DNA from: Candidatus Latescibacterota bacterium
GTDB lineage: Bacteria > Latescibacterota > UBA2968 > UBA8231
Length of the DNA stretch: 64,000 nucleotides
NCBI GenBank assembly: GCA_965203175.1
Contig: OZ241867.1
Location: 896,001 to 960,000, forward strand
Direction of reading: 5' to 3'
Position numbers and translations under genes: made by a program. The notes beneath the pieces are model-generated. The model saw only the letters and a program-made list of their open reading frames with translations. It was not told the origin of the DNA and did no database searches. Of the stretch, positions 3,817 through 23,643 are shown piece after piece; within the stretch, counting starts at the first letter, position 1; the number at the start of each line of letters is the position of its first letter.

Positions 3817-5712
3817 TTAATTCCACGGCAGAGCGTACGAGGGCTTATTGACGAAACGCTCCATCCCCAAGTCGAGCCGAATCGCCGATCCAGGCTGGAG
3901 GCAGACGGTGAAGTGGCGACCCTGTACGGCGACCGTTTTGTCCTCCAGTTGCCCCTGAACGTTCTGCTGATATTGGGTGGCATGCGAGTGTCCCGCACCG
4001 GCTTCCTCAGCCGAGAGGGGCCGGCGCTGCTGATAGGCAACGCGGGTGAAGCTGTGCTCGCCAAAAGCGCCGGCCTGCAGCAATACCTCGCGCTCTTCCG
4101 TCGGGTGCAGATTGACCAAGTGCAGGACAGCCCGCTCATCTGCCAGCGATTCCACCAAGGCGGCCACGTCTAACGGCAAGCCCGGGCGGCGGCGTTGCGG
4201 GTCGAAGTAGCGCAGGCGAGCCATGAGCAGGCCGCCGTTGTACATGAAGAGCGGGGCACCCATCGTCAGTTGCACCAAACCCTCGACAGTGATGGGATTG
4301 CGCACCTGCAGGTATGCATCGCTGTACGTAGCAGGATCTTGCTGATCGTCGCGCATGAAGGCCAAGCGCTGATATACTTGCGCGTGGTTGTGCCGCAGAA
4401 TGTCCACCGGGTAGTCCGGGTATTCGCCTTCGAGATACGCGGTCCAAGCAGCTTCGTGGCCGCCGCCGTGCTTGGAAAAGTGCGAGCTTACCTGCCGCCA
4501 GTTGTCGCTGTCGTAGTTGCGCTGCTGTTTGAGCCGCGCCAAGTCCTCTTGCTGCATGCTCATGTACCAGAGGTGGGTCGTGGGATGGGCCTGCATGGGG
4601 CTGTACCCGTCCCAGCCTTTGTCGTGGTAGAAGTGCGGCGCGTACAGCGTCTGCCCTCTCATTTCTCCCTGCTGCATCAGCACGTCGATTTGCGAGCGCG
4701 GAAAGTCCATGTAGCGCAAATCGCCGGAGAGCAAGGCCGCGTTTTCCGCAGCCGCAATGCAGGCGTCGCTCAGGTGGTGCCAGCCGTGCGGCCACGTCCA
4801 GCCGTAGTACCCGCCGTACCACTTGCCGTCGATGTATTCGCCGATCTGCCCCGACAGGCCAACGTTGTCGGGCAGGATGCCGTTGTTTTGCCGGGTGCGC
4901 TCGATCCACGCGTTGGTGTATTCCTCGACCCAGGCTCGGTACTTGTCGTCGCCGCTGCACAGGTAGGCGTTGGTCACCATGCTAGTAGCGGCGAGGTTGC
5001 AGGCCACATCGCCGCGGCTCATGCGCTCGACGAGGGTTTGGCCCATCTTCTCTTCCATGCCCGGCTTTTGCAAATCCTCGACCGTCTCAATGCCGGGAAT
5101 GTCGTGAAAGGGCAAAGGCCAAGGTTTCCACTGGGCGTAGCGATAGACCGTGTAGTGCTTTTCAAAATTGCGGTGCGCCGGTCCCATGCTGCCATTGTGA
5201 GCGCAGCGGATGAGCTTTTTCTCCGCGTCGTAGTTGGGGGCCTCGGGGTCTTCGTTGAGATAAAAGCCCGCATAGCGCTTGGCGCGCTCGACGTTCTTTT
5301 CGGTCGGATCGGCGAGGCACAGCAAATAGAAAAACAAGTACCCCTCGCCTTGGTGCATCCAGTCGTAGCCTTGCTCGTATTCTTTGACGATCATGGGATG
5401 GCCGTGGCCGGTATCGTAGCGGGTGAACTGCCGGGTGATGCCCTCCCAAGTGCGGTGGGAATATTCGAGCATGTGATCGCCGCCGCCCATCAAGTAAAAA
5501 AGCGGCCAGTTGTGGAAGCTCTCGTACGCGTCGTCGAGGCCATCGATGCTGCTGAAGTCCTCTGTGGGCGGCCACAGCACCGAACCGTCCGGGCGCACGT
5601 AGCGCTCCATGAGCGGATGGACGGAGGCGTCCATCAGGTCGATTAGGCTGCGCTCGAGAACGGCCCATTGGGGCGGCTCGACAAACGGTATGTTCCCTTC
5701 GATTCTTACCAC
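3817..5712 (-). CDS. Conserved hypothetical cytoplasmic protein, 631 aa, aromatic-rich, possible (alpha/alpha)-toroid sugar lyase/hydrolase
   Basis: Long ORF with GAGGAGG RBS and GTG start; DDAYESFHNWPLFY and YDWMHQGEG motifs; fold is inferred. Confidence 0.75.
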   Translation of the reverse strand: MVRIEGNIPFVEPPQWAVLERSLIDLMDASVHPLMERYVRPDGSVLWPPTEDFSSIDGLDDAYESFHNWPLFYLMGGGDHMLEYSHRTWEGITRQFTRYDTGHGHPMIVKEYEQGYDWMHQGEGYLFFYLLCLADPTEKNVERAKRYAGFYLNEDPEAPNYDAEKKLIRCAHNGSMGPAHRNFEKHYTVYRYAQWKPWPLPFHDIPGIETVEDLQKPGMEEKMGQTLVERMSRGDVACNLAATSMVTNAYLCSGDDKYRAWVEEYTNAWIERTRQNNGILPDNVGLSGQIGEYIDGKWYGGYYGWTWPHGWHHLSDACIAAAENAALLSGDLRYMDFPRSQIDVLMQQGEMRGQTLYAPHFYHDKGWDGYSPMQAHPTTHLWYMSMQQEDLARLKQQRNYDSDNWRQVSSHFSKHGGGHEAAWTAYLEGEYPDYPVDILRHNHAQVYQRLAFMRDDQQDPATYSDAYLQVRNPITVEGLVQLTMGAPLFMYNGGLLMARLRYFDPQRRRPGLPLDVAALVESLADERAVLHLVNLHPTEEREVLLQAGAFGEHSFTRVAYQQRRPLSAEEAGAGHSHATQYQQNVQGQLEDKTVAVQGRHFTVCLQPGSAIRLDLGMERFVNKPSYALPWN

Positions 5713-5722: not shown

Positions 5723-7402
5723 TCATGTGTTGCGGACGAGGGCCTCTACCTGTGCGCGGAAGACCTCGATTTGCGCCGCGTACTCGTGGCGCAATTGGAT
5801 GATGAATTGCCCAAAGAGCCGCTCCTGCTTTTGTCGGCGCACCAGTGCCCGAGCGCGGCGCTCGGCCTGTGCAAAGGGCCTCGGTGCGGCGTTGATCGTC
5901 GAATCGAGCAAGCGGAAAATGGCGTAGTACGGGCCGCTGATCGGCTCGGAGCTCAGCACCTCGGCGGCAGTAACCTCCAAGGCAATCGGACCGATGAGTG
6001 CGCCGACTTTTTGCCCTTGTGCCGCCTCAAAGAGTGGTACGAACTGCTGCTTCTCCCAAGGATGCAGATGAAACTCGCCTTGGTGGGCTTTGCCGCGGCG
6101 GCGCAGGGTGTGCTCCGCGGCCAGCGCGCCCAAGTCGCCGCCGCGCTCCACTTCCTCGCGCAATGCGAGCGCCTCCTCCTCTGTGCGAACTAAAATTTCC
6201 TGTACGCCGATCGATTCGAGGGGGCGGAAAAGGTTGGGATGGCGGTCGTAGAACGCTTGGGCTTCTTCGCGGCTGGCGAAGACGCCATCGACCACGTCCC
6301 GGCGCATGGCCACCAGCAAGTTCGATAGCTGCCGCTCTTGGAACCAAGCGACCACTGCTTCTTCGCGATCAACGCCCGCCGTGTACGCGCCGGCCAAGAG
6401 CAGCGCGCGCGGCTCGACGATGTCTCGGACGAACCAGTCGAACTGCTCGGGCGCGTCCTCTGGAAAGCCAACGCCTAGTTCGCGGGCAAAATCGAGCAGA
6501 TCGCCGATGGTAAATGTGCCGCTCTCGTGCTCGTAGATCGGCTGCTCGCGCTCCTCTGCAGAAAACGCCTTGGCACCCTGCCCAATGCGCCCGCGCACGC
6601 GCTCCAAGGCTTGGTCGTGAACCACAAAGTCGAGTTCCTGCCGCAAGCGAGCCGACAGCGCCTGTACGGCCGGCGGCAGCTTCTCCTTGAGTAGCTCGGC
6701 CTCGATGACCGACTGCACGACCGAGAGCTTGACCGGCGCTTCGGCTGTTATCTCGTACACGCCGAACTGGTCGTTGAAGAGCACCGGCTCCGAGAACTGA
6801 CCCGGTGCCAACGGAAAGACCTTCTCCTGCAAGATGCGTGGGTACAGCTCGTCCTTGATCAGGTAGCGGCCCTCCTCTAGCTGGGTCGCGTCGAGCAGGT
6901 TGTGGCTAGCCCATGTGTCGAAATCGTCGCCGCCCTCCAAGGCCGCCTTGATCGCTCGCGCCTCTTCTATTGTGGCAACTACGATGCGCCGCACTTGCAC
7001 GGCGCGGTCGCGGCCTGTCTCTCGCTGGTGGGCCAGCATTTCCTCTTGCGTGTGGACGATCTTGTCGTACACCTCTAGCTGCAAAAAGCGGCGCAAGACG
7101 CGGTCGTTATGCAGCTTGTCCATCTTGCGGCGGAAGTCGGCGCGCTGGTCGAGGCCCCGCTTTTTGGCCTCCAGGACCATGAGCTCCTTGTCGATTATGG
7201 TCTGCAGGTAGTCGAAATAGGCATCCGCACCCGTCTTCTTGCTCCGCAGATCGGGATGTAGCCTTTCTTCAAACTCCAGCAATTGAGGGGCGTCGATTTC
7301 CACCTCGCCGACTCGGGCCACCACCAAGTCCTCGGTGGGGGTGCCGCAGCTCCAGCAAACGAGGAGCCACAGCCAATATACCGCGTGCTTCGATCTACTC
7401 AC
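5723..7402 (-). CDS. PpiC/parvulin-type peptidyl-prolyl isomerase lipoprotein (SurA/PrsA-like chaperone)
   Basis: Lipobox-like LLVCWSC, VVARVG, IIDKELMVLEAKKRGL SurA-N helix, two rotamase-like repeats (IVVATIEEA / ILVRTEEEA). Confidence 0.85.
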   Translation of the reverse strand: MSRSKHAVYWLWLLVCWSCGTPTEDLVVARVGEVEIDAPQLLEFEERLHPDLRSKKTGADAYFDYLQTIIDKELMVLEAKKRGLDQRADFRRKMDKLHNDRVLRRFLQLEVYDKIVHTQEEMLAHQRETGRDRAVQVRRIVVATIEEARAIKAALEGGDDFDTWASHNLLDATQLEEGRYLIKDELYPRILQEKVFPLAPGQFSEPVLFNDQFGVYEITAEAPVKLSVVQSVIEAELLKEKLPPAVQALSARLRQELDFVVHDQALERVRGRIGQGAKAFSAEEREQPIYEHESGTFTIGDLLDFARELGVGFPEDAPEQFDWFVRDIVEPRALLLAGAYTAGVDREEAVVAWFQERQLSNLLVAMRRDVVDGVFASREEAQAFYDRHPNLFRPLESIGVQEILVRTEEEALALREEVERGGDLGALAAEHTLRRRGKAHQGEFHLHPWEKQQFVPLFEAAQGQKVGALIGPIALEVTAAEVLSSEPISGPYYAIFRLLDSTINAAPRPFAQAERRARALVRRQKQERLFGQFIIQLRHEYAAQIEVFRAQVEALVRNT

Positions 7403-10253
7403 TAAGTCCTGCTTGCACTGTGACAAAAGTCAATCCACTGGTTTCGATGCGAGCCTTCTCCTCCGCGAGCTCTATTCGCCGCTTGTCAATGCGCAGCCCC
7501 ACTTGGGACATGAGCTTATAGCCCAAGTACGAAGTTGTATTGGACAATTGCACGGCAAAGGACGTCTCGTTGTAATCCCCGGTGGTATCACCTGCGTTGA
7601 CGGTGGCCTCGTCCACGACCATGTCGCGGAAACGCAAGTACTCCGTGCCGAACTGTACGACCGACCGTTTCATAAAGGGCACCTTTACCAATACCGAGGC
7701 CAGCGCGCTCCAATCGCGGCGCTCGGCCGTGGGGGTACCTAGCTGGCGCTCAATATTGAACGGAGTATCGTCCATGAACAACTCGTGCTTGAGGCGCGGC
7801 AGCGCGGTTATGCGGCCTAGATGCAGTGGGTACTCGGCCTTGTTGATCAGCCCCAAGCGCCGCGCATTGCGTTGCAAGGAACGGCCATCGCGGTCAACGG
7901 CATCTTCTCGCCGTTGCTGCATGAATTCATACAGCAGCTTGCTCTCGCTCTGGAGGCCAGCGCGGCCGCGGCGCTCAGCGCCTATCCACAGCTTGTTGAC
8001 CAAGGCATCGCCCATGCCCAGTGGATCGCGGATGGCGATCATGCCGCCGGGGGAATTGCTCGAGCGGCCGAGCACGGGGCGCAGTTGAATCCACTGCACC
8101 AAGTCTTCGGCGATCGCATCGGCAGCCCACTTGAACGAATTATACGCCGTCAGCGTGCCCAATCCGGCAAAGCTCTGTTCGTACGCCAGCAGGGCATAGT
8201 ACGTGCGGTTGCGCGCACCCGTCGTCGGCTTGCGCTCCCACACCTGCCCAGTCGTCAGCTTGAGTTCGGGCCGGAGCTCCGCGCTGAGATAGGCGTTGTA
8301 CCCACGCCGGTCGCGCTTGTAGGGGTAGTCGGGCTCTTCGTCGTTTTCAAAGCGGTCGCCCCAGCCATTGTTGTTCAAATCGAGGGCAAAGAGATACTCG
8401 GGGCGATCGACATTGTAGCGGAGAAAAGGCTCTTCGTAGTCGGGCAAGAAATTGGGACGCTCGCGCAGGTCGTTTTGATTGAAGTCGGAAATAAAGTCGT
8501 TGTTCTCGTCGAGGCCGGGGAAGACCGCGTCGTCGGCAAAACCCTCAAAGGTGCGCGCGCGGCCCTGGCGCTGCTCACCGATGCGGCCGTCGTCAAAGCG
8601 GCGCTTTTGGTCGTTGATGCGGTCGTTGTCGTCGTTGTCATCGACAAAGTCGTACACGTGTCGCGACCGCGCTTCGTCGTCGTTGGACCAATCCACCCGG
8701 CCGCCGCTATCGACAAAGCGCGGGCTCGTGTCGTACTCGGCGTCTAGGCCGAATGCCTCGCCAAAAAAGTAAAACGGCGCAAAGCGGCGAGAGACATTGA
8801 CCATCCAGCCGAGGGCCGCGCGATCCCCGCCAATGCCCGAGGACGCCTTGTGCGTATCCCGTGTCCGCGTCGGGTACTGGGTGAACTGGTGGTTGACGTT
8901 GAATTCGCCGTACACGCGGAAGCCAACCCAATCGTCGGCCTGAAGCGTCAGCCCGGCCACCTGCGTCGCCGTCGGCAGTCCGTAGTCAAAGACTACCGTC
9001 CGCTGGTTGGAGTTGTCCCAGACGTTGCCCTCGGCCCGGGCGACCGTGCGAAACTGCGGCTGCTCGCCGCTGGGACTGTTGTCGGTCTGGCGGTTGGACG
9101 TGACCTCTACCTTGTAGTCGTTGCCCAACACCAAACGGAAGCGCACCCGGCTGATTTGGTTGACCAAGTCCGCGCTCGGCACTACAGATTCTAGATCCGC
9201 GACCGCTGGATCTTCGTCAGAAAACACGTATTCAAGCAAGATCTGGCTCGCCTCGCCCCGGCCCTCGGCCGTCAGAAAACCGCCCCGCTCGATTCCACCG
9301 ACGATGCGCGGCGCAAAGCCAATCTCGCTGCCAATCAGCAGGGTGTCGCGGTCGCCGATCCGCGTCTCAATCTCAATATCGCTGCCAAAAAGCACGGCTC
9401 CACCGCCCTCGTCTTCGGGCGAATCGTCGGTCAGCCGCACCACGATGCGGTCGATGCGTCCGTCTAGCTGGCCGCTCGTCAGCTTGCCCTTGAGCGGGTG
9501 GCCCTCAAAGCGGTCGGAAGCCGTCCGGCCGTTGTGCGCGTTGAGAAAGGTGCCGCCGATCCGCGTCGTAGCGCCCAAGTCCAAGACCACGCGCCCGCCG
9601 ATGAGGTTGGTGAAATTGTCCTCTGTCACGGGAAAGGGGTCCGTGCGGAACAGCGGCAGGTTGATCCGCGACATCAGCACGGTGGCCGTCAGGCGGTCGG
9701 CCGCGTAGTTGAACATAACCCCATTGTACGCGGTCTTGCGAAAGGTCATGGGCGTCAGCATGGCGAAGATCTCGTCGCCGATGAGCACTGAGAAGTAGTG
9801 CTGGCCCTTGGTGTCGCCGGCAATGACCAAGTTGCGGAACCACGAGCCGTATTGGCCGGCCTGCAAAATGCCCGAACCGCCCGAGCCGGTCGGCTGGACC
9901 TGACGCCAGTCGTAGATCAACCAGCCCTTGTTCAAGAAGCGCCCGTAGAGGTCGTAGAAGTACCCACCCTCCAACCCCGGATCGAGGTAGCGCCGATAGG
10001 AGTCCCGCGCGTAGTTAGTGTAGGCCCACTGGCGACGGTACTCGCCGGCAATTTCCTGCGGCAGATACCACTTCTGCAACGAGGGATAGACGGCCTCCAT
10101 GCGCAGTCCCGTGCCGGCCGAATAGTAGATCGGCTGGCCCGTTTCGATGCGGCCCAAGCGGCTGCCGTAATCCTCGCGCTGGGCGCTGAGCGGCGCGGCC
10201 CCAAGCAGCGCGACCCAGCAGAGAGCGCCGACGCGGCGCAAGCTGGCGTTCAT
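7395..10253 (-). CDS. Large secreted, putative outer-membrane protein (paralog B)
   Basis: Signal peptide; D/N-rich motifs (VDDNDDNDR, DENNDFISDFNQND, DLNNNGWGD); C-terminal amphipathic strands; aligns end to end with 10258..13014. Confidence 0.8.
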   Translation of the reverse strand: MNASLRRVGALCWVALLGAAPLSAQREDYGSRLGRIETGQPIYYSAGTGLRMEAVYPSLQKWYLPQEIAGEYRRQWAYTNYARDSYRRYLDPGLEGGYFYDLYGRFLNKGWLIYDWRQVQPTGSGGSGILQAGQYGSWFRNLVIAGDTKGQHYFSVLIGDEIFAMLTPMTFRKTAYNGVMFNYAADRLTATVLMSRINLPLFRTDPFPVTEDNFTNLIGGRVVLDLGATTRIGGTFLNAHNGRTASDRFEGHPLKGKLTSGQLDGRIDRIVVRLTDDSPEDEGGGAVLFGSDIEIETRIGDRDTLLIGSEIGFAPRIVGGIERGGFLTAEGRGEASQILLEYVFSDEDPAVADLESVVPSADLVNQISRVRFRLVLGNDYKVEVTSNRQTDNSPSGEQPQFRTVARAEGNVWDNSNQRTVVFDYGLPTATQVAGLTLQADDWVGFRVYGEFNVNHQFTQYPTRTRDTHKASSGIGGDRAALGWMVNVSRRFAPFYFFGEAFGLDAEYDTSPRFVDSGGRVDWSNDDEARSRHVYDFVDDNDDNDRINDQKRRFDDGRIGEQRQGRARTFEGFADDAVFPGLDENNDFISDFNQNDLRERPNFLPDYEEPFLRYNVDRPEYLFALDLNNNGWGDRFENDEEPDYPYKRDRRGYNAYLSAELRPELKLTTGQVWERKPTTGARNRTYYALLAYEQSFAGLGTLTAYNSFKWAADAIAEDLVQWIQLRPVLGRSSNSPGGMIAIRDPLGMGDALVNKLWIGAERRGRAGLQSESKLLYEFMQQRREDAVDRDGRSLQRNARRLGLINKAEYPLHLGRITALPRLKHELFMDDTPFNIERQLGTPTAERRDWSALASVLVKVPFMKRSVVQFGTEYLRFRDMVVDEATVNAGDTTGDYNETSFAVQLSNTTSYLGYKLMSQVGLRIDKRRIELAEEKARIETSGLTFVTVQAGLSE

Positions 10254-10257
10254 GCCG

Positions 10258-13014
10258 CTACTCCAGCCCCGCGTACACGGTTATGAAGCTGGTGCTAAAG
10301 GCGCTGACTTCATTGGTCCGCTCCAAGTCTTCGCTGCCAATAATCACCCGCTCCTCCCACAAGCGCGTATAGCTAAAGCCAAACTGCGTCGTCAGCCGGT
10401 AGCCCAAGTAGGAACCAGCGCTGGACCATTGCAGGGCCAACACCAAGTTGCGGAAATCGCCCGTAGGCCCAGCCGGGCCGTTGGCGAGCTGTTCGTCCTC
10501 GTCGAGGACCAAGTCCCGGAACAGGGAAAACTCAACGCCCGTTTCTACCAGCGACTGGCTCAATAGCGGATGGCTCAGCAGCACGATACCCGTGCCGACC
10601 CACTCTTTGCGGTCCTCAGCGCGCGCTTCGAGCGCTGTCTGGTTGAGATACTCGCTCTTGACCTTGGGCTGCAACTTGAAGCCAGCCAAGCCAAAGGTGT
10701 AATCCGCTTTGTTGATCAACCCAATCAAGTGGCTGCCTTGGTTGAGCGCCGGGCCTTTGACGCGGCTTTTGAACGCGCTGCCCTGCTGCCAAAAGCGCTC
10801 GTACTTGAACTTGTTGATCGCATTTAGGTTGTCGAGCGGCTGGTAGTCGAGTTGCAAATAGGTCGTGTTGATCCACGTGTCCCGCGCCGGCAGAATGTCG
10901 CGCACCAGCGCGAGCGAGTTGACTTCGAGGTGCGGCGTCATCTCGCGCCGGTCATCGGCGATATCGTCTTCCACGCGCCGCAGCATCTCAAAGGCCCGCA
11001 ACCGGCCCCACGTGAAGTCGCGGTCGTAAGTCAGCAGACCATACGCGGCGCGGTTGCGCCCGTCGGAAGCCATACTCTCTTCGCTCAGCCTGCCCAACGT
11101 CAGCCGCGTGTGCGGGTCAAGAAAAATGCCGGCGTACAGGTTGTAGCCCCGGCGATCGACCTTGTAGGGGTAGTCGGGTAAGTCGTCGTTTTCAAAGCGG
11201 TCGATCCAACCATTGTTGTTCAGGTCGATGCCGAACAAAAACTCCGGGCGATCAGCCGCATAGCGGAAGAAGGGTTCTTCGTAGTCCGGGATGCGGTTGT
11301 TGAGGATGCGATTGTCGTTTTGGTTGAAGTCGGAGACAAAGTCGTTGTTCTCGTCCCACCCCGGGAAGACGGCCACATCGCCGCCGCCCTGCGAAAAGCG
11401 GAACCAATCGGCCGAGCGGTCTTGGTCGTCGTTGTCGTCGACCAACTCGTACAGGGACGTGCGCGGATTGTCGTAGGTAATGTCCCCGCCGTCGTCCACG
11501 ATAAACGAACTCGTCGAGTAATCCGGGTCCATGCTGTACGCCTCGCCGAAAAAGTAAAACGGCGCGGCCACCTTTGAGGCGTTGATCATCCAAGCCTCGG
11601 CGTCGCGGGCGTGCGTGGCCAGCGAGCGATCGGCTGCTTGGCGCGCTGGGTTGGGGTACTGGCTGTACGCGCGGCTGACGTCGAATTCCGCGTATAGGTC
11701 CACGCCCTTGATATCCGTGGCTTCTACAGTGAAGCCGTAGATCAAGCGGGACGATGGCAAGCCATAGTCGAAGACGACCCGCTGCTGATTGGAATTGTCC
11801 TGCACATTGCCCTCGGCGCTGAGGATGTCGAACAACGCCGGGGACTGATCTTCAACGTCCTGGCCCGTCAGCGGCAAGACCGGCAGCGCGCGGCTGCCCG
11901 TCTGCCGGTCGGACCAAACCTGCACCTTGTAGTCATTGGCCAAGACTAAGTCGAACTGCACGGCGACGAGTTCCGAGGGACGCGGGCCGGTATAGGCGAT
12001 ATCCGTGAAGTCGTAGTTGATGACGATCTTCTCGTCGCCATCGGCCGCCAAGGCCCCTTCCTTGGGTGCCCCGCCCGAGACCACGGGCCACCGCGCCGGA
12101 TCGGAGACCACGTCGCGGAGCCTAAATTGCTCGCGCTCCCCCGTCTCTGGATCCTCGCTCGTCAAGAGGATGTCGTGCGAAAACAAGGTCGCTCCACCCC
12201 GACCGTCCTCGGGCGAGTCGTCGCTGAGGACCAGGGCAAGGCCCGAGACCGGCAGGCTGCCCTGATTGGCCGCGAGGGTGCCGACGAAGGGGTTGCGCTC
12301 AAACGCATCGGCCACCGTGGTGGAGTTGCGCGCATTGACTAAATTGGCCCCCACGGCCACGAAATCGCCGATCTGCACTACGGCGCGGCCAGCCATCAGG
12401 TTGGTGGCATTGGAGATGCCAGTGGGGGCGGTGGGCGTGCTGCCGATGACCGGGCGGCTCACCCGCGAAAAGAGCAGGGTGCCCTCGTACTTGTCCGCGG
12501 CAAAGTCCATCTGCACGCCGCTGAAGGCCGGCTTGGAGAAGGTGAGCGGGGTCAGGGTCGTGCGGATTCGATCGCCCACTGTGATTGCATAATAGAACTG
12601 CCCCTGCGAGTCCGAGCTAATGGTGACCGCATTGAACCAGTTGTTAAAGCGCGGATCCTTGAAGATGGACGAACCAAATTGCACGGGTTGGTTCTGGGTC
12701 CAGTCGTAGATGAGCCAGCCGCGCGTCAAGTAGTTGCCGTACAGGTCGTAGAACGGAGAGCCTTCAATCGTGGTGCTGACGTAGCGCTCGTACGCGTCGC
12801 GCGCGTAGTTGGTGTACTGCCACTGCTGCCAACCGTAGTCGGCAAACAACTCCTGCGGCACGTACCAGCGCTTGATCGTTGGATCCAAGGCGTCGAAGAG
12901 CACGCCCGGCCCTCGCGGTTCATAGGTGATGTCCGCGCCCCAGCGCCGGCCTTGGGCATGGGCACCTATCGCCGCGATGAGCAAGGCGGCGAGTATCCAC
13001 CGTAGGTCTCGCAT
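10258..13014 (-). CDS. Large secreted, putative outer-membrane protein (paralog A)
   Basis: Signal peptide MRDLRWILAALLIAAIGAHA; same motif series as 7395..10253; ends FITVYAGLE. Confidence 0.8.
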   Translation of the reverse strand: MRDLRWILAALLIAAIGAHAQGRRWGADITYEPRGPGVLFDALDPTIKRWYVPQELFADYGWQQWQYTNYARDAYERYVSTTIEGSPFYDLYGNYLTRGWLIYDWTQNQPVQFGSSIFKDPRFNNWFNAVTISSDSQGQFYYAITVGDRIRTTLTPLTFSKPAFSGVQMDFAADKYEGTLLFSRVSRPVIGSTPTAPTGISNATNLMAGRAVVQIGDFVAVGANLVNARNSTTVADAFERNPFVGTLAANQGSLPVSGLALVLSDDSPEDGRGGATLFSHDILLTSEDPETGEREQFRLRDVVSDPARWPVVSGGAPKEGALAADGDEKIVINYDFTDIAYTGPRPSELVAVQFDLVLANDYKVQVWSDRQTGSRALPVLPLTGQDVEDQSPALFDILSAEGNVQDNSNQQRVVFDYGLPSSRLIYGFTVEATDIKGVDLYAEFDVSRAYSQYPNPARQAADRSLATHARDAEAWMINASKVAAPFYFFGEAYSMDPDYSTSSFIVDDGGDITYDNPRTSLYELVDDNDDQDRSADWFRFSQGGGDVAVFPGWDENNDFVSDFNQNDNRILNNRIPDYEEPFFRYAADRPEFLFGIDLNNNGWIDRFENDDLPDYPYKVDRRGYNLYAGIFLDPHTRLTLGRLSEESMASDGRNRAAYGLLTYDRDFTWGRLRAFEMLRRVEDDIADDRREMTPHLEVNSLALVRDILPARDTWINTTYLQLDYQPLDNLNAINKFKYERFWQQGSAFKSRVKGPALNQGSHLIGLINKADYTFGLAGFKLQPKVKSEYLNQTALEARAEDRKEWVGTGIVLLSHPLLSQSLVETGVEFSLFRDLVLDEDEQLANGPAGPTGDFRNLVLALQWSSAGSYLGYRLTTQFGFSYTRLWEERVIIGSEDLERTNEVSAFSTSFITVYAGLE

Positions 13015-13028
13015 TAGACCCTCCCTAA

Positions 13029-15194
13029 TCAGTACACTAATTCGACAACTCTAACTGCGCTTTCGCCGCCTGTATCGCTGGCTAGCGTTACGCGCACTAA
13101 GTAAATGCCCGGCGGCAGCGCGTTCCCGTTCGCATCCGCGCCGTCCCAAGGCATGGCGTACGAACCGCCGCCCTGGAGGCCGGAAAATAGCTGGCGCACC
13201 CGGCGTCCGGCCAAATCGACGATGTCCACATCAACCGGGGACGGGCTGACCAAACGGCTCAGATCGTAGTACACCTGCGTCGCATCGTTGATTCCATCGC
13301 CGTTGGGGCTGAAGGGCCGGGGATCGGCCCGCACGTTGATCAGCAAGGCGCTGCCGCCGGCTAGTGGCACATCCACCGAAAGGCCCCGGTTCGTCTCCGT
13401 GCCAACCGCCACAATATCGTCGTCGCCGGGAGCCAGCGCGGCCACGTTGCCAGCGACGACCTCCTGCCCCACATCTCCCTCGTCGCTGTTGAAAGCAAAA
13501 CCGGCGAACTTGGTGCCGTAGCGCAACACGCGGCTGCGAAAGCGAATTTTGAGCTGGGCCGTCCGCCCGGTCGCCAGTTCGCTTTCGGCAATGAGGGGAA
13601 AGCGCACGCGAAAGCGGCGCGCATCGACCGACTCAATGGCAAAGCGTCCGGTCTCGTCCGTAGCTGGCAGCGCGGCAAGATCAGCCATTGAAAAATCCGC
13701 GGCCTCAACTTGGCCATCGGCGTCGATGACTTCAATGGAGTCAATGACCTCTACTCGCACCGGCGTGACGATCTCAAAACCGTCAAAGCCCGTATCTACG
13801 TCTGGCCGGATGGACGTGGGCATCACCGCATAGACGAAATCCACCGGCTTGCCCAAATCGACCTGCCGCGGAAAGATCTCTCCGAGAATCTGCGCGGCCG
13901 GCGGCGGCGAGGCCACGGTAAAGGCCAGTGGGCCGATGCCTGTGGCCGCCTCCAAATCCTCGCTGAGAAAATCGATGCGAAACTGTATGTACCGCCTCGG
14001 CCCAGGCGAGACAATCGGCACGCCCAATTGGCTATCCTCGATCTCTGCCTCGGTCAACTGGGTCCCCAGTTCGTAGGGCGAGGACCACGGGCTCCAAGCG
14101 TCTAAGTCGGCGACCACATTGCCCCGCTCGGCACCCAAGCCCTTGTAGTCGTCCGACGACAGCGAGATGGCGTTGCGCTCCTCCAGCGGCAGCGCACCAA
14201 AGAGCGCACGCGCACGCGCTAAGTCGGCTTGGTCGAGATTGACCTCGCCGTCCTCAGTCGCAACCGTGGCATTCTTTTTCCACGGCACCTCGACTTGGAC
14301 CCCCTCGAAGAAGAAGCGCCGGGTATAGACTAAAGGGGTGTCGTCCAAGCCGGTGCGGGTGCGCACGCGCGCGTTGGCGAAACCAGCCGGGCCGACGCTT
14401 TCCTCCACCCAGCGAATGGTCCCCCACAAGCCCAAATCTGGGCCGAGGTCGAATATGTTGGATATGTATTCAGCCGTGGGCACGAAGCCCGTGCCAAAGA
14501 CGCGGAACTCGGCGATTTCAAAACCGTTGCTGGTGCGCGACTGCAAGCGGATGAAGCGCACAAATTGCGGGGGAATGCTCAAATCGACTAGCGCGTCTTG
14601 GTTGGCGGCATTCAACCGAAACGAACGCCATTCCGGGCCGCCCGCGCCTTGCGTCTCCTCGCTGCCGTCGTTGAAAAACAGCTCGTAGCCGCGGATGAAG
14701 TCCTCTTGGAACGGGTCTGCGGGAAAATCCGGGTGGCCATTGCGCGGGAAGAACTGGACGCGATTGACCCCAAAGCGAGCGCCTAGGTCGAAGTCCATGG
14801 CCATGCCGCGAATGACGGCCACGTTCTTGCGCTCCAATGCCGTTTCGCCGTCGCCGTCGATCATCGTCTCTAGCTGCGACTCAATGCCCGCTTCGAGAAC
14901 CGTCGGCGAGGTGACCGAACCGCCGCGCCCGAGTATGCCGAGCGCTAGATTGGTGCCTTCGACGATGTTCTGCGGAAAAATCCAACCCTCTCGCCCCTCG
15001 GGATCGAAATCGATCACGCCGCCCGGGGTGTTGCCGCTCTCGACCGCTCTGGCCCCGGTCGGAAAAATCGCCTGTATCTGGCCGCCGCCGTCTTGCCAAG
15101 ACGATCCGCTCGCGCCGCCGATGGCAATGCTCCGCGTCTCGGCTGTGCCTTGCAGCGCCGCTAACAACATCAGCGCGATCGGCAACCAGTACAT
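13029..15194 (-). CDS. Secreted beta-rich protein with C-terminal FlgD-Ig/CHU_C-like domain (paralog 3)
   Basis: True start likely MYWLPIAL (GGGAGG RBS); FSPNGDGIND...DLAGRRVRQL...WDGADANG..PPGIY tail; discoidin-like DGD..T / DLG motifs. Confidence 0.82.
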   Translation of the reverse strand: MYWLPIALMLLAALQGTAETRSIAIGGASGSSWQDGGGQIQAIFPTGARAVESGNTPGGVIDFDPEGREGWIFPQNIVEGTNLALGILGRGGSVTSPTVLEAGIESQLETMIDGDGETALERKNVAVIRGMAMDFDLGARFGVNRVQFFPRNGHPDFPADPFQEDFIRGYELFFNDGSEETQGAGGPEWRSFRLNAANQDALVDLSIPPQFVRFIRLQSRTSNGFEIAEFRVFGTGFVPTAEYISNIFDLGPDLGLWGTIRWVEESVGPAGFANARVRTRTGLDDTPLVYTRRFFFEGVQVEVPWKKNATVATEDGEVNLDQADLARARALFGALPLEERNAISLSSDDYKGLGAERGNVVADLDAWSPWSSPYELGTQLTEAEIEDSQLGVPIVSPGPRRYIQFRIDFLSEDLEAATGIGPLAFTVASPPPAAQILGEIFPRQVDLGKPVDFVYAVMPTSIRPDVDTGFDGFEIVTPVRVEVIDSIEVIDADGQVEAADFSMADLAALPATDETGRFAIESVDARRFRVRFPLIAESELATGRTAQLKIRFRSRVLRYGTKFAGFAFNSDEGDVGQEVVAGNVAALAPGDDDIVAVGTETNRGLSVDVPLAGGSALLINVRADPRPFSPNGDGINDATQVYYDLSRLVSPSPVDVDIVDLAGRRVRQLFSGLQGGGSYAMPWDGADANGNALPPGIYLVRVTLASDTGGESAVRVVELVY

Positions 15195-15205
15195 CGCAAC
15201 CTCCC

Positions 15206-17698
15206 TCAATACACCACGTGAACGAGGCGGTGCCGCGCGGTGCGCTCCACGCGCGAGTCGTCGTTGGGCACCACTTCTACCTCTAGCAGATACAGTCCGG
15301 GGACGACCAATACGCCGGATTGATCCTCGCACGACCAGCGCAGGGCGTACTCGCCGCTGATCAAGGGCCGCGTCTCCTGCCAGTGCCGCACCATCCGGCC
15401 GGCTAGGTCGTAAATCCGCACGTGGAGCGGCTGGGTGCCAGTCAGCTTAGTGACCGCGAATGAGAATGCCAACTCGTCGTTGATCCCATCTCCATTCGGC
15501 GTCGCGACCCCACTGCCAATGCTCAGGTCGCCCAGCACGTGGCGGCCGCCTTCTGGGCCTACCAACAGCATCCCCTGCCCGGTCGCCAACTCCGTTGCAT
15601 CCGCTGGGTCAACCCGCTGCCAAGAATCTTCAAGGGCCGAATGCCCCAACGACGCCTTGAACACGGCACCGGGCAAGTAGAGGGCGGTGGCGAATTGCAC
15701 CTCAATCAGATCGGCTGCGGACGGGGCGACGACCTCGCTCAACCGCACCCACAAAGAGTCTGGAGCAGTCGCCACTACTTCTGCTGAGGCCACTAGTTCC
15801 GCACTGTCCCATTGGGCTTCGCGCCCCAGCCGCAGGCCCCGGAACTCCAGTGCCATGTTATCCGGTGCCCTTATCTGCACCTCGTCAAACCCCGCGCTCT
15901 GCGCAGCGAAACGCGGTTTGATGAAAAGCGAGAGCTCCTGCTCCTTGCCCAACGCGCCTACGACGCCGGGTTCGATCTCGCCTAAGAGCTGCCTAGCCAG
16001 CGGCTCGACGAAGTTGAGCCGAATGGAGCGCAGCTCGGCCGCGCGGTGTGGGTCGTCCGAGACCAAGCGGGCCTTGAGTTCCAGAAATTGGCGCGGGCTC
16101 GGAGAAGTAATCGCCGCGCCCGACGTCTCGTAGGGCAAGCTCCACGCGCTCCAGTCGCCTCCGGGGACTTCCGTCGTGTCGACCGGCCCCTTGCTGAAAA
16201 AGCCCAAGCCAGCGTATGCCTCGGCCGACACTTCGGCACCGCCGCTGTTGAAATAGCGATACTCTTCGACCAGCTCGCTGCCCGTGCGCGTCTGAATTTC
16301 GATAAAAGTTCCTAAATCGGCATCTCCATCCCACTCAACCGAGACCAAGTTTTTCGAGCCGCCCAAGCGGATGAGCGGCGAAACCAACTCGACTTCCGGC
16401 TGGAAACCCTCGCCGTAGAACTGCACTTCGCGCGGCTTGAACTGACCGCCTCCCCAGAACAAAATCCGCGCATAGCGCGTCCGCGTCGGCGCGAACGTAT
16501 CCACGTCGTACACGTCTCCGGTATAGTGGCCAGACGTGGCGCGGTTGCGCCGCGCGGCCTGCGTCGTCCACACCAGCGAGCCGTCCGCAGCTAGCGAGCC
16601 GTCCGAAGTCTGCAAGTCGTAATTGGGAAAGCGGCTGCGCTGGCGGTCGTAGTAAATCTGGTGCCGGTCGATCCAGAAGGAAGATCCTAAATCGAAGAAT
16701 AACTCCCGTATCTCGTCGGTGCTGGTAAAGGCCAAGGACGTCTCGAAGATGCCGTCGAAGAAGGCCGTCGCGGGCGCGTTGTCCAAGAAGGTGAGCAGCG
16801 CGACGCCTCTGCGCTCCACCAAGCCCAGCGAGATGTTTTCCCCGAGCGTCTGAACCTCCAGTTCGGCCAGCCGCGGCCGCTCGCGGCGATAGCGGCGGAT
16901 CTCACCGCGCAACGCAGAGTCAACCACCTCGTACGTGGCCTCGCTCACCTGCACTTGGCCCGCGCCGGCCTTTTTGTAAAAATCCACTGCGCCTTGATCC
17001 GCAGCCGCTAGCTGGTCGTATTGTTCAGCCGACACCTCGGCGGCTCGCGTGCTATCCGTGTCGGTGATCGTCAGGCGCACGAAGCGGATGTAGTCGCTCA
17101 CCATGCGCCCTTCTCTGTCAAGGCGCGAGGGGCTCAGCTCGATTTCAAATTCTCGCTGATCCTTGTTCGACTTCAAGGTGCGGAAGACTTGGTTGAATCT
17201 GCGCTGGCCTTTGGTAACCTCGGCTCCGTCCGAGGTCAAAACCACGAATTGCAGGAAGGGGTCGCCTATATCCTCGCCGACGAATGTAAGTCGGATATGG
17301 GTGGCCGCCACCAGCCGCCCCAAATCGACCTCAAACCACCATTGGCGCAATGGACTTGCCGGATCGGGTTCCCAATAGGTGCTCAAGTCCCCGTCGAAAA
17401 GGTGGGCCAGATCTGCGGCCCGAGTGCCCGCACTGAGGGCGTCGCGCAGGGTCGCGTCGTCCGATCCCGTGCCGCGCTTGATAAACGCCGCGATGTCCGA
17501 CGTTGCCAGTGTGTTCTTGGGCACAAAGTGGGGACGCACGACCCCGGTCTCGTCGATGTCGAGCGTACCGCCGGGAAAAGTCCACTGCTGCCAGTGCGCC
17601 TGCCGATCGACGACGACCTTGTTCTCGGCGATGGTATGGCCCTGTCCCCAGGCGGCGACAACCCCCAACACACTCAGTAACAACGCAGCATTCAACAT
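15206..17698 (-). CDS. Secreted beta-rich protein with discoidin (F5/8C)-like modules and C-terminal FlgD-Ig/CHU_C-like domain (paralog 2)
   Basis: Signal peptide; LFDGDLSTYW...WFEVDLG; ATPNGDGIND...DLAGRMVR...PGLY. Confidence 0.82.
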   Translation of the reverse strand: MLNAALLLSVLGVVAAWGQGHTIAENKVVVDRQAHWQQWTFPGGTLDIDETGVVRPHFVPKNTLATSDIAAFIKRGTGSDDATLRDALSAGTRAADLAHLFDGDLSTYWEPDPASPLRQWWFEVDLGRLVAATHIRLTFVGEDIGDPFLQFVVLTSDGAEVTKGQRRFNQVFRTLKSNKDQREFEIELSPSRLDREGRMVSDYIRFVRLTITDTDSTRAAEVSAEQYDQLAAADQGAVDFYKKAGAGQVQVSEATYEVVDSALRGEIRRYRRERPRLAELEVQTLGENISLGLVERRGVALLTFLDNAPATAFFDGIFETSLAFTSTDEIRELFFDLGSSFWIDRHQIYYDRQRSRFPNYDLQTSDGSLAADGSLVWTTQAARRNRATSGHYTGDVYDVDTFAPTRTRYARILFWGGGQFKPREVQFYGEGFQPEVELVSPLIRLGGSKNLVSVEWDGDADLGTFIEIQTRTGSELVEEYRYFNSGGAEVSAEAYAGLGFFSKGPVDTTEVPGGDWSAWSLPYETSGAAITSPSPRQFLELKARLVSDDPHRAAELRSIRLNFVEPLARQLLGEIEPGVVGALGKEQELSLFIKPRFAAQSAGFDEVQIRAPDNMALEFRGLRLGREAQWDSAELVASAEVVATAPDSLWVRLSEVVAPSAADLIEVQFATALYLPGAVFKASLGHSALEDSWQRVDPADATELATGQGMLLVGPEGGRHVLGDLSIGSGVATPNGDGINDELAFSFAVTKLTGTQPLHVRIYDLAGRMVRHWQETRPLISGEYALRWSCEDQSGVLVVPGLYLLEVEVVPNDDSRVERTARHRLVHVVY

Positions 17699-17710
17699 GG
17701 CCCCTGCTCC

Positions 17711-19660
17711 TCAATAGGCGACGGCAATGGGCCGCATTTGCACTTGGCGCTTCCCACCGCTCTCGACCTCGACTTGGCAGATGTACAGACCGGGGGCCAC
17801 CTGCTGGCCGGCCTCGTCTCGCCCGTCCCACTGATGCGGATGCCGTCCCGCGACATCGACGTCTGCGTACACGCGCCGCACTAAGCGGCCGCTCAAATCC
17901 CGCACCAGCACCTCCACCGGCACCGGCTCGGTCACCTTGAGCAGTTCGTAGGCGATCTCCACTTGGTCGTTGATCTGGTCGCCGTTGGGCGTAAACGCCT
18001 CGGTGCTCAGAGACACAGCTCCTAAGACCTTATTGTCTAGGGTCATCGCCTGCACCAAAAGTTGGTTGCCATCTACCAGCTCGTTGGCCTCGCCAGCGGC
18101 CACGATCTGCCCGATCTCCCCCGGCGCTGTACTGTCGATCACCCGGCCTTCAAAAATTGCACCAAAGCGGAAAATTTCCGCGCGCACATCCACTTCGAGT
18201 AGCTCGCCACTGCGCTCGACATCCAACCGTGGGAAACCCAAAACTACGCCGGCCTCCTCGGCCACGGCGCTGAAATCCGCCACGGATTCACCACTGAGGC
18301 GCACGGCCTCTACGTCGACGATCCGGCCGCCGACCAAGCGCAGGTCCAACCCGTCAAACCCTTGGTCGCCGGGTTCAATCGTCGGGCGCACTGCATAGGT
18401 AAACGTGCGTTCCTCAGCCACTGCCGCTTGCCAAGGATCGATCTCGCCGACTAAGCCGGTCACCAAGCGCGGGGAAACGGCGAATTCGAGATAGCCGAGC
18501 TGGCCGCCGGCTTGGCCGAAGGAGCTGAATGCTATCCTGAACTGCACGTAGCGGTGGGAGCGCGTCGCCCGCAGCGCCACGCCCGCGCTGTCGGCGAATT
18601 CGTACGGCGACGACCACAGCTCCCATTGGGCGGTGTCGTCGGTGATGGCTCCGCGCATGATCGGCCCCAAGCGGCCATAGGTTTTGCGGGTCAGCAGCTT
18701 GCCGTCCTCGCCGAAGGGCACCTGTTCGTCGCCCCGGAAGGTATTGCGCCAGTACACCAGCGGCGTCTCGTCGCCGCCAGCGCGGGAGCGGATCTCCACT
18801 TGCGCCCCTTCGTCCTGCCGCCCTCCCCAGCGCACCCAGCCCAAATTGGCGAATTCGCCTATATCGAGAACATTGGACTGGTACGAGGCCGAGCCTTGGA
18901 AACCGCCGCCGTACACCTCCAACTCAGCTAGGTCCCATATCTTATCTTGGGGCATCACGTGAATCATCAAATAGCGGATCGGCGTTCCGTCTAGCTCGAT
19001 GTCGAGCTGCGGATTTTTGTTTTCCAAAATTTCCGCGACCACCTTTAGCTCAATGCCCTTCTTGCTGTCGGCCTCTCTCAGCGACCGATTGAGCGCACTC
19101 GCTCCAACGAATTCAATCTGATCAACGCCGCCCCCGGCATCGGTCTGCGCGGCGACGATGACGTGGGCGACAGAGCGTTCGCTGCCCACCTTTGGGACGA
19201 AGCGGACCAACCGCGTCGCAAAGTCGCCGCCGAGATCAAAAAAAAGAGCCGTGCCGCGGAAGGTATGGGCGTGTTCCCGCGGACGGGTCTCCAAGAAAAA
19301 CGTCTCCAGGTCCCCGTCGATCACCAAGCTCAGTTCGTCGCCGACATCTTCAAAACCATTGTACGCGCCGTGCTGAAAATTGCCGCTGACCCCGCTCAGG
19401 GTCGTCGCCATATTATCGCTCTCGTTGTAGAAAAACGGCGTGATCTGCTCGGTGAGCGCGAGCCCAAAGCTCTCGCCGCCTAAGTTCTTGTCTAAGTCGG
19501 CCCAGCTCAACTGGCGAAATTCAGCACCGGCGTCCACCTCAGCCGGAGGCGGCAGACTCTCGCCGCCGATGCGATAGACGACCAAGGCCGCGCTCGGCTG
19601 GACGCCGAGCAAAGCCAACAGGGCCGCGACGAGCCATGTCGTGCGCTGCAATTTTTTCAC
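17711..19660 (-). CDS. Secreted beta-rich protein with C-terminal FlgD-Ig/CHU_C-like domain (paralog 1)
   Basis: Signal peptide; FTPNGDQIND...DLSGRLVR...WDGRDEAG..VAPGLY. Confidence 0.82.
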   Translation of the reverse strand: MKKLQRTTWLVAALLALLGVQPSAALVVYRIGGESLPPPAEVDAGAEFRQLSWADLDKNLGGESFGLALTEQITPFFYNESDNMATTLSGVSGNFQHGAYNGFEDVGDELSLVIDGDLETFFLETRPREHAHTFRGTALFFDLGGDFATRLVRFVPKVGSERSVAHVIVAAQTDAGGGVDQIEFVGASALNRSLREADSKKGIELKVVAEILENKNPQLDIELDGTPIRYLMIHVMPQDKIWDLAELEVYGGGFQGSASYQSNVLDIGEFANLGWVRWGGRQDEGAQVEIRSRAGGDETPLVYWRNTFRGDEQVPFGEDGKLLTRKTYGRLGPIMRGAITDDTAQWELWSSPYEFADSAGVALRATRSHRYVQFRIAFSSFGQAGGQLGYLEFAVSPRLVTGLVGEIDPWQAAVAEERTFTYAVRPTIEPGDQGFDGLDLRLVGGRIVDVEAVRLSGESVADFSAVAEEAGVVLGFPRLDVERSGELLEVDVRAEIFRFGAIFEGRVIDSTAPGEIGQIVAAGEANELVDGNQLLVQAMTLDNKVLGAVSLSTEAFTPNGDQINDQVEIAYELLKVTEPVPVEVLVRDLSGRLVRRVYADVDVAGRHPHQWDGRDEAGQQVAPGLYICQVEVESGGKRQVQMRPIAVAY

Positions 19661-19671
19661 AATGGCACCTC

Positions 19672-19716
19672 CAAGAAGAAGAGGGGATGGGACTAGCCCA
19701 TCCCCCCTCGTTCTTG
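19672..19716 (-). terminator. Intergenic GC-rich stem-loop (terminator-like or mRNA stabiliser)
   Basis: GGGGATGGG-actag-CCCATCCCC stem, with flanking CAAGAA/TTCTTG pairing, between the first and second genes of the block. Confidence 0.55.
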
Positions 19717-19735
19717 CATCCTAAATACTGCCCGC

Positions 19736-20680
19736 TTACTGGACGAAAGCAGACTTGATGCGACCCCAGCTATTCTCCTCGACCGCAGTCTCGATCGCGC
19801 TAAAATCGACGCGCGGATCAAGGGGTGCCAGCAGGAAATCCGTGGCCGAAGCCGTGGTTTTCCACACGTCGCTGGCGCCCGACAGAGACCACTGGCCAGA
19901 GTGCTCGGCATCCTGGCCGACGCCGCCGTCAGCACCGGCTACATCGCTGTCGAAGACCGCCCAGCCCAAGCCGGTGATCTCGCCCTCGTTGTAGTCGTGG
20001 ATGACGCTGCCTTCCGGGTCGTTGAAGAGAAAATCATCCCAGGCTTGGCGTCGCACCTCGATAAAGGCCGTGGCCTCGCCACCGCCGATTTCGCCGTCCA
20101 AGCGGAAGCCGTGGTCAGCGTAGGGCAGCTCGTCGTGCCACTGCGCTTGGGTCATCCAAAACCACGACCAGCTCTCCTGGCCGTCGGGGCCGAGATTCGG
20201 GAAGCGGGTGTGGTAGGACTGCGACCAGCGGCCTTGGGCCAAGGCGCGCTCTTCCTCGTTCTCTATGTCGGCAGTGCCGAAGCGCATCTGATCGCCGCTG
20301 TGGTCGCCATCGACGTGCATTTCCCAGCTATCGTCGCCGCCGGCCACGCCGCCTTGGGCGTCGCGATCGTAGAAGTCGTCAAAGCGCTCCATCATGAAAT
20401 AGAGACTGTTGGTCGATTCGCTCCAGCCGACGATAGTGCGGAAGTTCAAATCGCCGAACTCGGCCGGCTTTTCGCCATTGAACGCGGTGTGATCGGCAAA
20501 GGTAATCAAGTAGTCCTCGGGGACGATCGACCATTCGGACAGATCGCCGTCCAGCGTGGGCTCAAGGCCCGCCGGCCACTGGAAAGCCGTGCGCACAGCG
20601 CCCTCGGGCACGTGCGCCGTAGCCGGAGCAACGACGGCCACGCACAGGGCCAGTGCGAAGAAAACAGTGATTTTTTTCAA
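19736..20680 (-). CDS. Secreted CBM9/DOMON-like sugar-binding-fold protein with C-terminal TAVEENSWGRIK tail
   Basis: TTG start 6 nt after AAGGAGG, signal peptide MKKITVFFALALCVAVVAPATA; PTLDGDLSEW and GWSESTNSLYF motifs. Confidence 0.75.
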   Translation of the reverse strand: MKKITVFFALALCVAVVAPATAHVPEGAVRTAFQWPAGLEPTLDGDLSEWSIVPEDYLITFADHTAFNGEKPAEFGDLNFRTIVGWSESTNSLYFMMERFDDFYDRDAQGGVAGGDDSWEMHVDGDHSGDQMRFGTADIENEEERALAQGRWSQSYHTRFPNLGPDGQESWSWFWMTQAQWHDELPYADHGFRLDGEIGGGEATAFIEVRRQAWDDFLFNDPEGSVIHDYNEGEITGLGWAVFDSDVAGADGGVGQDAEHSGQWSLSGASDVWKTTASATDFLLAPLDPRVDFSAIETAVEENSWGRIKSAFVQ

Positions 20681-20806
20681 AATCATCCTCCTTGGTTTTA
20701 GGATAACGCCCGCTACAGTGGGGCATATTAGGAGCTTATTATAAAACAAACGCTTCCGTTTTACTACTCTTAATCTTCGGCAATGACCTCCTTTCTCGGT
20801 TGTAAC

Positions 20807-23628: not shown

Positions 23629-23643
23629 ATTATCATTCCACCT

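Follow-up and report, generated by a model that had tools for sequence, protein, structure and literature searches.

Some forty cassettes built around a new family of predicted outer-membrane barrels in a Latescibacterota genome: a putative TonB-independent analogue of polysaccharide-utilisation loci

What kind of envelope system would pair large predicted outer-membrane barrels with secreted binding-type proteins and a folding lipoprotein, in some forty versions within a single genome? The question is raised by a 64,000-nucleotide stretch of a Candidatus Latescibacterota genome (contig OZ241867.1, positions 896,001 to 960,000; below, the window). The Latescibacterota are uncultured and widespread. 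In the window, a minus-strand block of seven co-oriented genes (5723-20686, open reading frame (ORF) coordinates) encodes a CBM9-fold protein (W), three paralogs with FlgD-Ig-like tails (F), two paralogous barrels (B) and a parvulin-type lipoprotein (P), and a TPR lipoprotein gene (T) lies directly upstream. We rate this cassette a new kind of envelope system with a putative function. Our leading reading, which we hold tentatively, is that W-F-B-P(-T), working without TonB, SusC or SusD, is an analogue of polysaccharide-utilisation loci and would catch and import large nutrients.

The block opens with W (G1, 19736-20686), a secreted protein of 316 residues counted from MILKK and ending in TAVEENSWGRIKSAFVQ; its assignment draws on the ORF, an alignment, a structural model and Foldseek. 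The three secreted F proteins follow: F1 (G2, 17711-19660, GTG start, 649 residues), with a FlgD-Ig/CHU_C-like C-terminal domain seen in Pfam, NCBIfam and BLAST-type comparisons; F2 (G3, 15206-17698, 830 residues), whose FlgD-Ig tail is weaker and which also has an F5/8 type C (discoidin) domain (Pfam); and F3 (G4, 13029-15197, about 722 residues from MYWLP), again with a FlgD-Ig tail (Pfam and paralog comparison). The longest ORF of F3 extends to 15332, and we prefer the MYWLP start. The barrels are B1 (G5, 10258-13014, 918 residues, two inserts) and B2 (G6, 7395-10253, 952 residues), and the last gene encodes the 567-residue lipoprotein P (G7, 5723-7426), in which Pfam finds two parvulin-type peptidyl-prolyl isomerase (PPIase) stretches. 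Signal peptides were called by eye from the translations, without a predictor. From G1 to G6 the intergenic gaps are 75, 12, 8, 14 and 4 bp, and the longest ORFs of G6 and G7 share 32 bp, so the ORF coordinates bear out the preliminary description of seven co-oriented genes in this order with gaps of at most 75 bp. The block nevertheless exceeds the one described there, which had left out T upstream of W and a further gene, H, downstream of P. The 75-bp gap between W and F1 holds a G+C-rich hairpin of 9 pairs (19683-19705, minus strand, found by sequence inspection) followed by TTCTTCTT; directly after it come a GGAGG and the GTG start of F1. It is a possible leaky terminator or RNA-stabilising hairpin, and, being terminator-like with a T-rich tail, it might set a higher ratio of W to F and B. 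A promoter scan gave 1 site against 3.9 expected and was uninformative.

B1 and B2 are 37% identical over their full length (E = 0), in agreement with the earlier claim that they are paralogs from end to end, and neither matches any Pfam or NCBIfam family at E <= 0.01. A search of the PDB sequences with the B profile gave just two chance-level matches. Among 8000 candidates scored from 5.8 billion proteins searched, 1074 are relatives at E <= 0.001; the 120 listed are all without a Pfam domain, and those that are named are called 'hypothetical protein' throughout. When all 1.84 billion cluster representatives were scanned, 722 proved related at E <= 0.001, 203 of them at E <= 1e-30. Judged by these profile searches and by its predicted fold, B is a new outer-membrane barrel family with at least 722 cluster representatives.

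The AlphaFold2 model of B1, built from a 63-row alignment, consists mainly of long antiparallel strands (predicted local distance difference test score, pLDDT, 81.6; predicted template-modelling score, pTM, 0.79), and a hand count from its DSSP string gives about 24-26 barrel strands. Foldseek places Deinococcus SlpA first (8ae1, E 3.8e-9) and MtrB second, with LptD, FimD, TonB-dependent transporters and SprA also among the matches. All of these are distant: query-normalised TM-scores do not exceed 0.27 at 6-10% identity, and those of the TonB-dependent transporters do not exceed 0.25, a generic barrel likeness only. VIA-align likewise ranks SlpA first (7zgx, Z 13.8, 428 residues aligned), followed by porins at Z 11-13, with FimD and PapC among its generic barrel matches (Z 10.9). 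Because model and structural matches show a large barrel, the earlier proviso that these ~930-residue proteins might not be barrels falls away: the fold is a confidently predicted outer-membrane-type beta-barrel. Two inserts interrupt it in B1, a beta-rich one at about residues 233-418 and an Asp-rich one at about 505-620, both on the side where the other long loops lie; given a periplasmic N-terminus, the model probably places both on the outer face of the cell. The Asp-rich insert, which holds an EF-hand-like loop (DLNNNGWIDRFE), is conserved more strongly than any other part of the family: its mean top-residue share is 0.56, versus 0.37-0.47 for the barrel.

B shows no defining feature of any named system tested. 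The SprA family model (TIGR04189) does not match it and has its only matches in the genome at 2.48 Mb; the PorP/SprF model (TIGR03519) does not match it either, and its only match in the genome (21.3 bits) falls on a PorV-like gene. A Pfam scan found no usher family domains in B. We also considered DUF5916 (PF19313) proteins, in which a CBM9-like N-terminus is fused to an outer-membrane barrel. The cassette resembles them in coupling a CBM9-type module to a large barrel, here as separate genes. We rejected B as a relative: it has no Pfam match to the family, and hhalign against one DUF5916 protein of the genome gave a probability of 0.2, although this comparison of a profile with a single sequence is a weak test. 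Three full-length DUF5916 outer-membrane genes lie elsewhere in the genome (2673185-2674897, 2042223-2043971 and 1388596-1390335), distinct from B and outside the cassettes. SlpA, MtrB, LptD and FimD, which match the B model best in structure, resemble it in fold only and share with B neither a non-barrel domain nor a gene context.

W has no Pfam or NCBIfam family at E <= 0.01, including the Pfam CBM9 families, and the earlier label 'CBM9-like' holds at the level of the fold. Its model (22-row alignment, pLDDT 77.6) matches the CBM9 structures 7nwn, 7nwo and 1i82 in Foldseek with E-values of 2.8e-9 to 2.7e-8 and target TM-scores of 0.74-0.78; weaker matches, with target TM-scores of 0.39-0.53, are the haem-binding DOMON-type proteins EbdC, NxrC and the cytochrome domain of cellobiose dehydrogenase. 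A His directly follows the signal segment in 22 of 22 aligned W proteins (window 20602-20616; in one column in 19 and shifted by two in 3), and a D-x-D-H-(S/G)-G motif is invariant. These conserved residues may form a metal or haem site. Since a conserved His after the signal peptide recalls lytic polysaccharide monooxygenases, we considered a copper protein of that type and rejected it, as none appears among the listed Foldseek matches, though W may well have a metal site of another kind.

The C-terminus of W (19736-19790) has the form TAVExxSWGRIKxxF, and, a point missed in the preliminary description, it is a genome-wide C-terminal tag. In all, 84 ORFs of the genome end in T-[AS]-V-E-x-x-[ST]-W-G-x-[ILV]-K-x-x-[FL], 8-16 residues from the terminus, and of 102 occurrences of the core motif in ORFs of at least 80 residues, 84 are C-terminal. 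Among the carriers are PD40 beta-propeller proteins, whose genes form tandem arrays outside the cassettes (e.g., L169:3532-18241 and L170:1210-18946); these arrays adjoin sigma-54 activators with Reg_prop/Y_Y_Y sensors. The tag lacks a transmembrane segment and is drawn as a low-confidence helix in the W model; no NCBIfam model matches it in W, and a full-text literature search for the motif returned nothing relevant. Its occurrence at the end of 84 ORFs, including those of non-cassette proteins, makes it look like a general sorting or anchoring tag.

The F proteins are related to one another as the preliminary description had it (F1 and F3, 28% identity, E 4e-52; F2 and F3, 25%, E 2e-27), and all three carry a PNGD(Q/G)IND motif. 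FlgD_ig scores 40.2 bits in F1 and 39.9 in F3 (cut-off 27) and 18.9, below the cut-off, in F2; the F3 tail has a further match to FlgD Ig domains of solved structure (E 3e-6). F2 has both F5_F8_type_C_2 (35.0 bits) and F5_F8_type_C (29.9 bits) above cut-off. The Atlas clusters nearest to F1 are all from Latescibacterota, with CHU_C in 42-84% and F5_F8 in 14-72% of their members. The suggestion that such tails serve as signals for a type IX secretion system (T9SS) stands as plausible, since the genome has SprA (490 bits, cut-off 200) and PorU (632 bits, cut-off 420); CHU_C in the three tails (23.2, 17.1 and 21.6 bits, cut-off 27) and TIGR04183 (19.9 bits, cut-off 23) stay below their cut-offs. 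The PorV-like gene directly downstream of PorU reaches 147.5 bits, below its cut-off of 250. GldM and GldL models have no match in the genome, but their controls were equally silent, so absence does not follow. Besides PorU itself, the PorU model has 50 matches in the genome that are confined to its C-terminal domain (CTD) end. Because SprA and PorU lie above their cut-offs, we regard the F proteins as probable, or at least plausible, type IX secretion cargo.

The parvulin identity of P, already proposed, is confirmed by PPIC-type rotamase domains above the Pfam cut-offs: Rotamase_2 at 57 bits in two stretches (cut-off 27) and Rotamase at 23.8 bits (cut-off 21.7). Its lipobox, LLVCWSC, is atypical, and most of the 38 P paralogs in the genome have a plain L-x-(G/A)-C. 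T (20807-22330, minus strand) encodes a TPR lipoprotein of 507 residues (TPR_2, 193.6 bits; N-terminus ...LLSIGGC) and lies 120 bp upstream of W.

A single locus gives little idea of the scale of this arrangement, and its roughly 40-fold multiplicity in the genome had been missed. The genome is a single contig of 6.58 Mb with 76 matches to B1. With phmmer, nine proteins were compared with all ORFs, and at E <= 1e-5 there are 62 relatives each for B1 and B2, 38 for P, 35 for W, and 188, 169 and 190 for F1, F2 and F3, a part of which probably rests on the tail alone. The 62 B genes fall into 40 loci with at least one B gene, which span 663 kb, or 10.1% of the genome. All 40 have F, 32 have P, 31 have W or a protein with only its tail and 26 have T, the TPR matches being promiscuous; two or more B genes occur in 19, and B, F, W and P occur together in 28. 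The exact gene order of the window recurs at two loci, at 5.38 and 3.66 Mb. Across 25 loci, the distance matrices of the components correlate (Mantel r 0.68 for W-B, 0.60 for P-B and 0.66 for W-P), and none of 2000 permutations reached these values, implying that cassettes duplicate and diverge as units. The correlation shows a shared history, as distinct from physical contact.

The genes keep the same company elsewhere. With the 14 closer B rows as query, a pattern scan that took one genome from each species gave 433 B-relative stretches, the best 80 of which form 79 loci; by our own count, 64 are labelled Latescibacter* and 15 Gemmatimonad*. These loci were selected via B, and some are cut by contig ends. 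Every one of the 79 has F beside B, and W, P and T occur in 64, 61 and 47 of them, which answers the earlier concern that homologs might not be co-localised elsewhere; the composition persists, and the gene order varies between subtypes. In a survey of 168 genomes of the phylum, 107 have a B match and 103 a W match. Within the family of our genome, both occur in 75 of 75 genomes (genome G000 being left out of the count), and in three families of its class both are absent from all 56; most of the remaining families are positive for both, and four small families are discordant. B and W thus have a nearly identical patchy phyletic pattern across the phylum, a comparison made without a statistic because kin genomes are not independent. 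Given a tenth of the genome and a presence in every genome searched of the family, the cassette must be central to the lifestyle of these bacteria.

To see what accompanies the cassettes, we collected 263 non-redundant ORFs of at least 200 residues within 6 kb of the 40 loci, clustered them by BLAST and scanned 10 representatives with Pfam; a bulk Pfam scan took in 92 of 266 flank ORFs and gave a list dominated by redundant TPR models. Two families recur: DUF6785+DUF6784 proteins (19 ORFs, with at least 9 hydrophobic segments) and FG-GAP/ASPIC-UnbV proteins (15 ORFs). Against the 17.4% expected from the fraction of the genome that lies within 6 kb of a B locus, both are enriched there, with 28 of 56 DUF6785 genes (50%) and 36 of 59 ASPIC genes (61%). 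The DUF6785/DUF6784 proteins are candidate inner-membrane partners of the cassettes. They are multi-pass proteins of about 650 residues with 56 members in the genome (e.g., L093:26-1969 and L097:1287-3266), and a literature search found no mention of DUF6785/DUF6784.

From the genes, families, folds, multiplicity, linkage and co-diversification observed here, we infer every contact, the direction of transport and the substrate in the following scheme; the single hetero-oligomeric complex proposed in the preliminary description, whether for import or display, is likewise putative. B would be a channel or platform in the outer membrane with its two inserts facing outward. The F proteins, with their discoidin-type domains, would be exported by the T9SS via their FlgD-Ig/CHU_C-like tails and then held at the surface, and W, with its CBM9 fold and separate C-terminal tag, would be a second binding unit. 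On the periplasmic side, the lipoproteins P and T may fold the barrel, scaffold it or act as its gate. B would let captured fragments of polymer through to inner-membrane DUF6785/DUF6784 or ABC systems, and neighbouring enzymes would then degrade them. Several observations lead us to uptake: B is an outer-membrane-type barrel; its partners W and F2 have binding-type folds; the multiplicity of 40 loci and 62 B genes resembles that of utilisation loci; the linkage is conserved and the components co-diversify as units; B and W share their phyletic pattern over the 168 genomes; the DUF6785 and ASPIC families are enriched nearby; the local context of aldolase, dehydrogenase, melibiase/GH31-like and beta-helix genes fits catabolism; an export route for F exists in SprA and PorU; and contigs from RNA libraries, in which DNA may be present, cover the locus. 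A more specific version, in which the Latescibacterota possess a nutrient-capture machine of their own, with a new barrel family independent of SusCD and TonB, partners delivered by the T9SS and by the undescribed tag T-[AS]-V-E-x-x-[ST]-W-G-x-[ILV]-K, and about 40 substrate-specific copies filling a tenth of the genome, is one we entertain with more reserve.

The comparison with the SusC/SusD polysaccharide-utilisation loci of Bacteroidota is instructive. There too, a genome has many paralogous loci, each pairing a large outer-membrane barrel with surface proteins of carbohydrate-binding fold, and inner-membrane transporters and catabolic genes often adjoin them. Unlike those loci, the cassette has no TonB-dependent receptor, Plug or SusD family in the nine proteins scanned, and, as the preliminary description had noted, Pfam and NCBIfam scans find no SusC/TonB receptor, ABC transporter or secretion ATPase family in G1-G7. 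Its binding proteins are not lipoproteins and instead have T9SS-like tails or the new tag, and it includes a parvulin lipoprotein (32 of 40 loci) and often a TPR lipoprotein. An association of the cassettes with carbohydrate-active enzymes (CAZymes) is putative; melibiase/GH31-like, beta-helix and aldolase genes lie near the one in the window. One genomic study of the Latescibacterota assumed non-specific porins (PMC4454575). Family, structure and literature searches matched the member set to no named system, as had been claimed, and a literature search with supplements excluded found no description of the cassette.

A number of observations weigh against uptake. No Plug or TonB-receptor family and no TonB box was recognised in the cassette proteins that would couple transport to energy. 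A locus-specific PPIase and TPR lipoprotein would, by analogy with the translocon described in PMC10994853, fit an assembly or secretion machine better than SusCD. W need not bind sugar, since its closest folds include haem-binding DOMON-type subunits. The counts of F and T relatives are upper bounds, because the best phmmer matches may reflect shared tails or TPR repeats. Near B loci, sulfatases (8 of 49, 16%) and enolase-superfamily enzymes (6 of 56, 11%) are not enriched over the expected 17.4%, and none of the 10 full-length Reg_prop/Y_Y_Y sigma-54 regulators of the genome lies less than 10 kb from a B locus. For glycoside hydrolases, the scans covered 92 of 266 flank ORFs and the 10 representatives, short of a systematic CAZyme survey.

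There is a different explanation, which we consider somewhat unlikely although it is the strongest of the rivals: the cassette may be a dedicated display, anchoring or export platform in which B, P and T form a locus-specific outer-membrane counterpart of the T9SS. Like the PorP/SprF-like barrels that anchor type B CTD proteins, B might hold the F proteins of its locus by their uncleaved CTDs, or it might itself be a small translocon; instead of import, the cassettes would then supply the cell surface with varying adhesins or coat proteins. In the extended T9SS translocon (SprA-PPI-SprE/PorW-PorV) described in PMC10994853, a 36-strand SprA barrel is joined by a PPIase subunit, the TPR lipoprotein SprE and cargo with CTDs, a composition that the giant barrel, PPIase, TPR lipoprotein and FlgD-Ig/CHU_C-like cargo of the cassette parallel. 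A precedent for a cargo-specific barrel encoded beside its cargo is the binding of type B CTD proteins to cognate PorP-like barrels (PMC9143113). In the same direction point the CHU_C-like tails of F (17-23 bits, and the CHU_C content of the nearest Atlas clusters), the lack of any PorP-family gene found in the genome beyond the 21.3-bit match on the PorV-like gene, and the co-diversification of P and T with B (the figure given being that for P-B). Set against this, B matches neither the SprA nor the PorP family in sequence and has about 24-26 strands where SprA has 36; the genome has its own SprA, PorU and PorV-like genes elsewhere, and the cassette exists in 40 copies; the tag of W is a different one, also found on proteins outside the cassettes; and the enrichment of DUF6785 genes beside the loci is left unexplained. 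A complex prediction of residues 79-918 of B1 with the last 120 residues of F3 scored 0.01 against a mark of 0.32 and counts neither way. Uptake and display are compatible, as an anchor can also be a channel, and both can be partly true. As an import machine, the cassette would be a second independent solution to the problem solved by SusCD in Bacteroidota; as a display platform, it would extend type IX secretion biology beyond Bacteroidota. Either way, annotation and experiment would gain a new barrel family, a new C-terminal tag and a role for the membrane proteins of the DUF6785/DUF6784 type.

Judging by the structures it matches best, B might instead be a family of structural envelope porins of the SlpA type, which tether or pattern the outer membrane, with the neighbours being unrelated secreted proteins and a general chaperone. 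We think this improbable: with query-normalised TM-scores of at most 0.27, the match to Deinococcus SlpA is that of a generic large barrel, Pfam and NCBIfam find no family in B and hence no cell-wall-binding domain, and a housekeeping role would fit poorly with 62 paralogs that are strictly linked to W, F and P and diversify along with them. Least probable of all is a redox reading, in which W would be a DOMON-type redox protein that binds haem or metal and the cassette would serve extracellular redox chemistry via an MtrB-like sheath barrel. The DOMON-type fold matches, the N-terminal His and invariant D-x-D-H of W and the second place of MtrB among the Foldseek matches of B speak for it, but CBM9 is clearly the better match for W, W has no CxxCH and almost no cysteine (by eye), Pfam finds no cytochrome family in G0-G8, and such a function would hardly account for forty copies in one genome.

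The locus is covered by contigs from RNA libraries (at least 90% likeness, four libraries of four studies), with depth in 30 of 30 bins in runs X15 and X17, 25 of 30 in X19 and 23 of 30 in X20, where bins without cover carry no meaning. Contigs bridge F3 to W (14968-20266), F3 to F2 and F1 to W; as the libraries may contain DNA, a contig does not equal a transcript and depth differences between genes are unusable, these data are only consistent with expression of the locus. DNA runs labelled as sponge and marine metagenomes contain 40-80% of the words of the stretch.

On the minus strand beyond P, after 10 bp, lies H (G8, 3817-5712), which encodes a cytoplasmic protein of 631 residues with no signal peptide and no Pfam or NCBIfam family; language-model features alone liken it to DUF8034 (score 0.98). 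With 10 paralogs in the genome and an H-like gene in 2 of the 40 own loci and 6 of the 79 related ones, H is loosely attached to the cassette. Further along are genes for an HpcH/HpaI-type aldolase (2926-3717) and a D-2-hydroxyacid dehydrogenase (1935-2996), also on the minus strand, which we give as context and as possible members. Divergently, on the plus strand (22423-29661), there are beta-helix, FG-GAP/ASPIC-UnbV, melibiase/GH31-like and second FG-GAP/ASPIC genes, again as context. The two FG-GAP/ASPIC-UnbV genes (23644-25851 and 27742-29661) belong to a set of 59 in the genome, 18 of which lie within 500 bp of a B cassette. At 32495-37221, the G+C content falls to 0.55-0.57 from about 0.61, over an AAA/DUF4143 ATPase gene and an ORF of 1159 residues without a Pfam family. 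Finally, large proteins that combine a spermine/spermidine-synthase domain with regions resembling the major facilitator superfamily or TPR repeats, such as those at 29648-32305 in the window and at L102:2275-5061, recur near cassettes, in 3 of the 263 flank ORFs.

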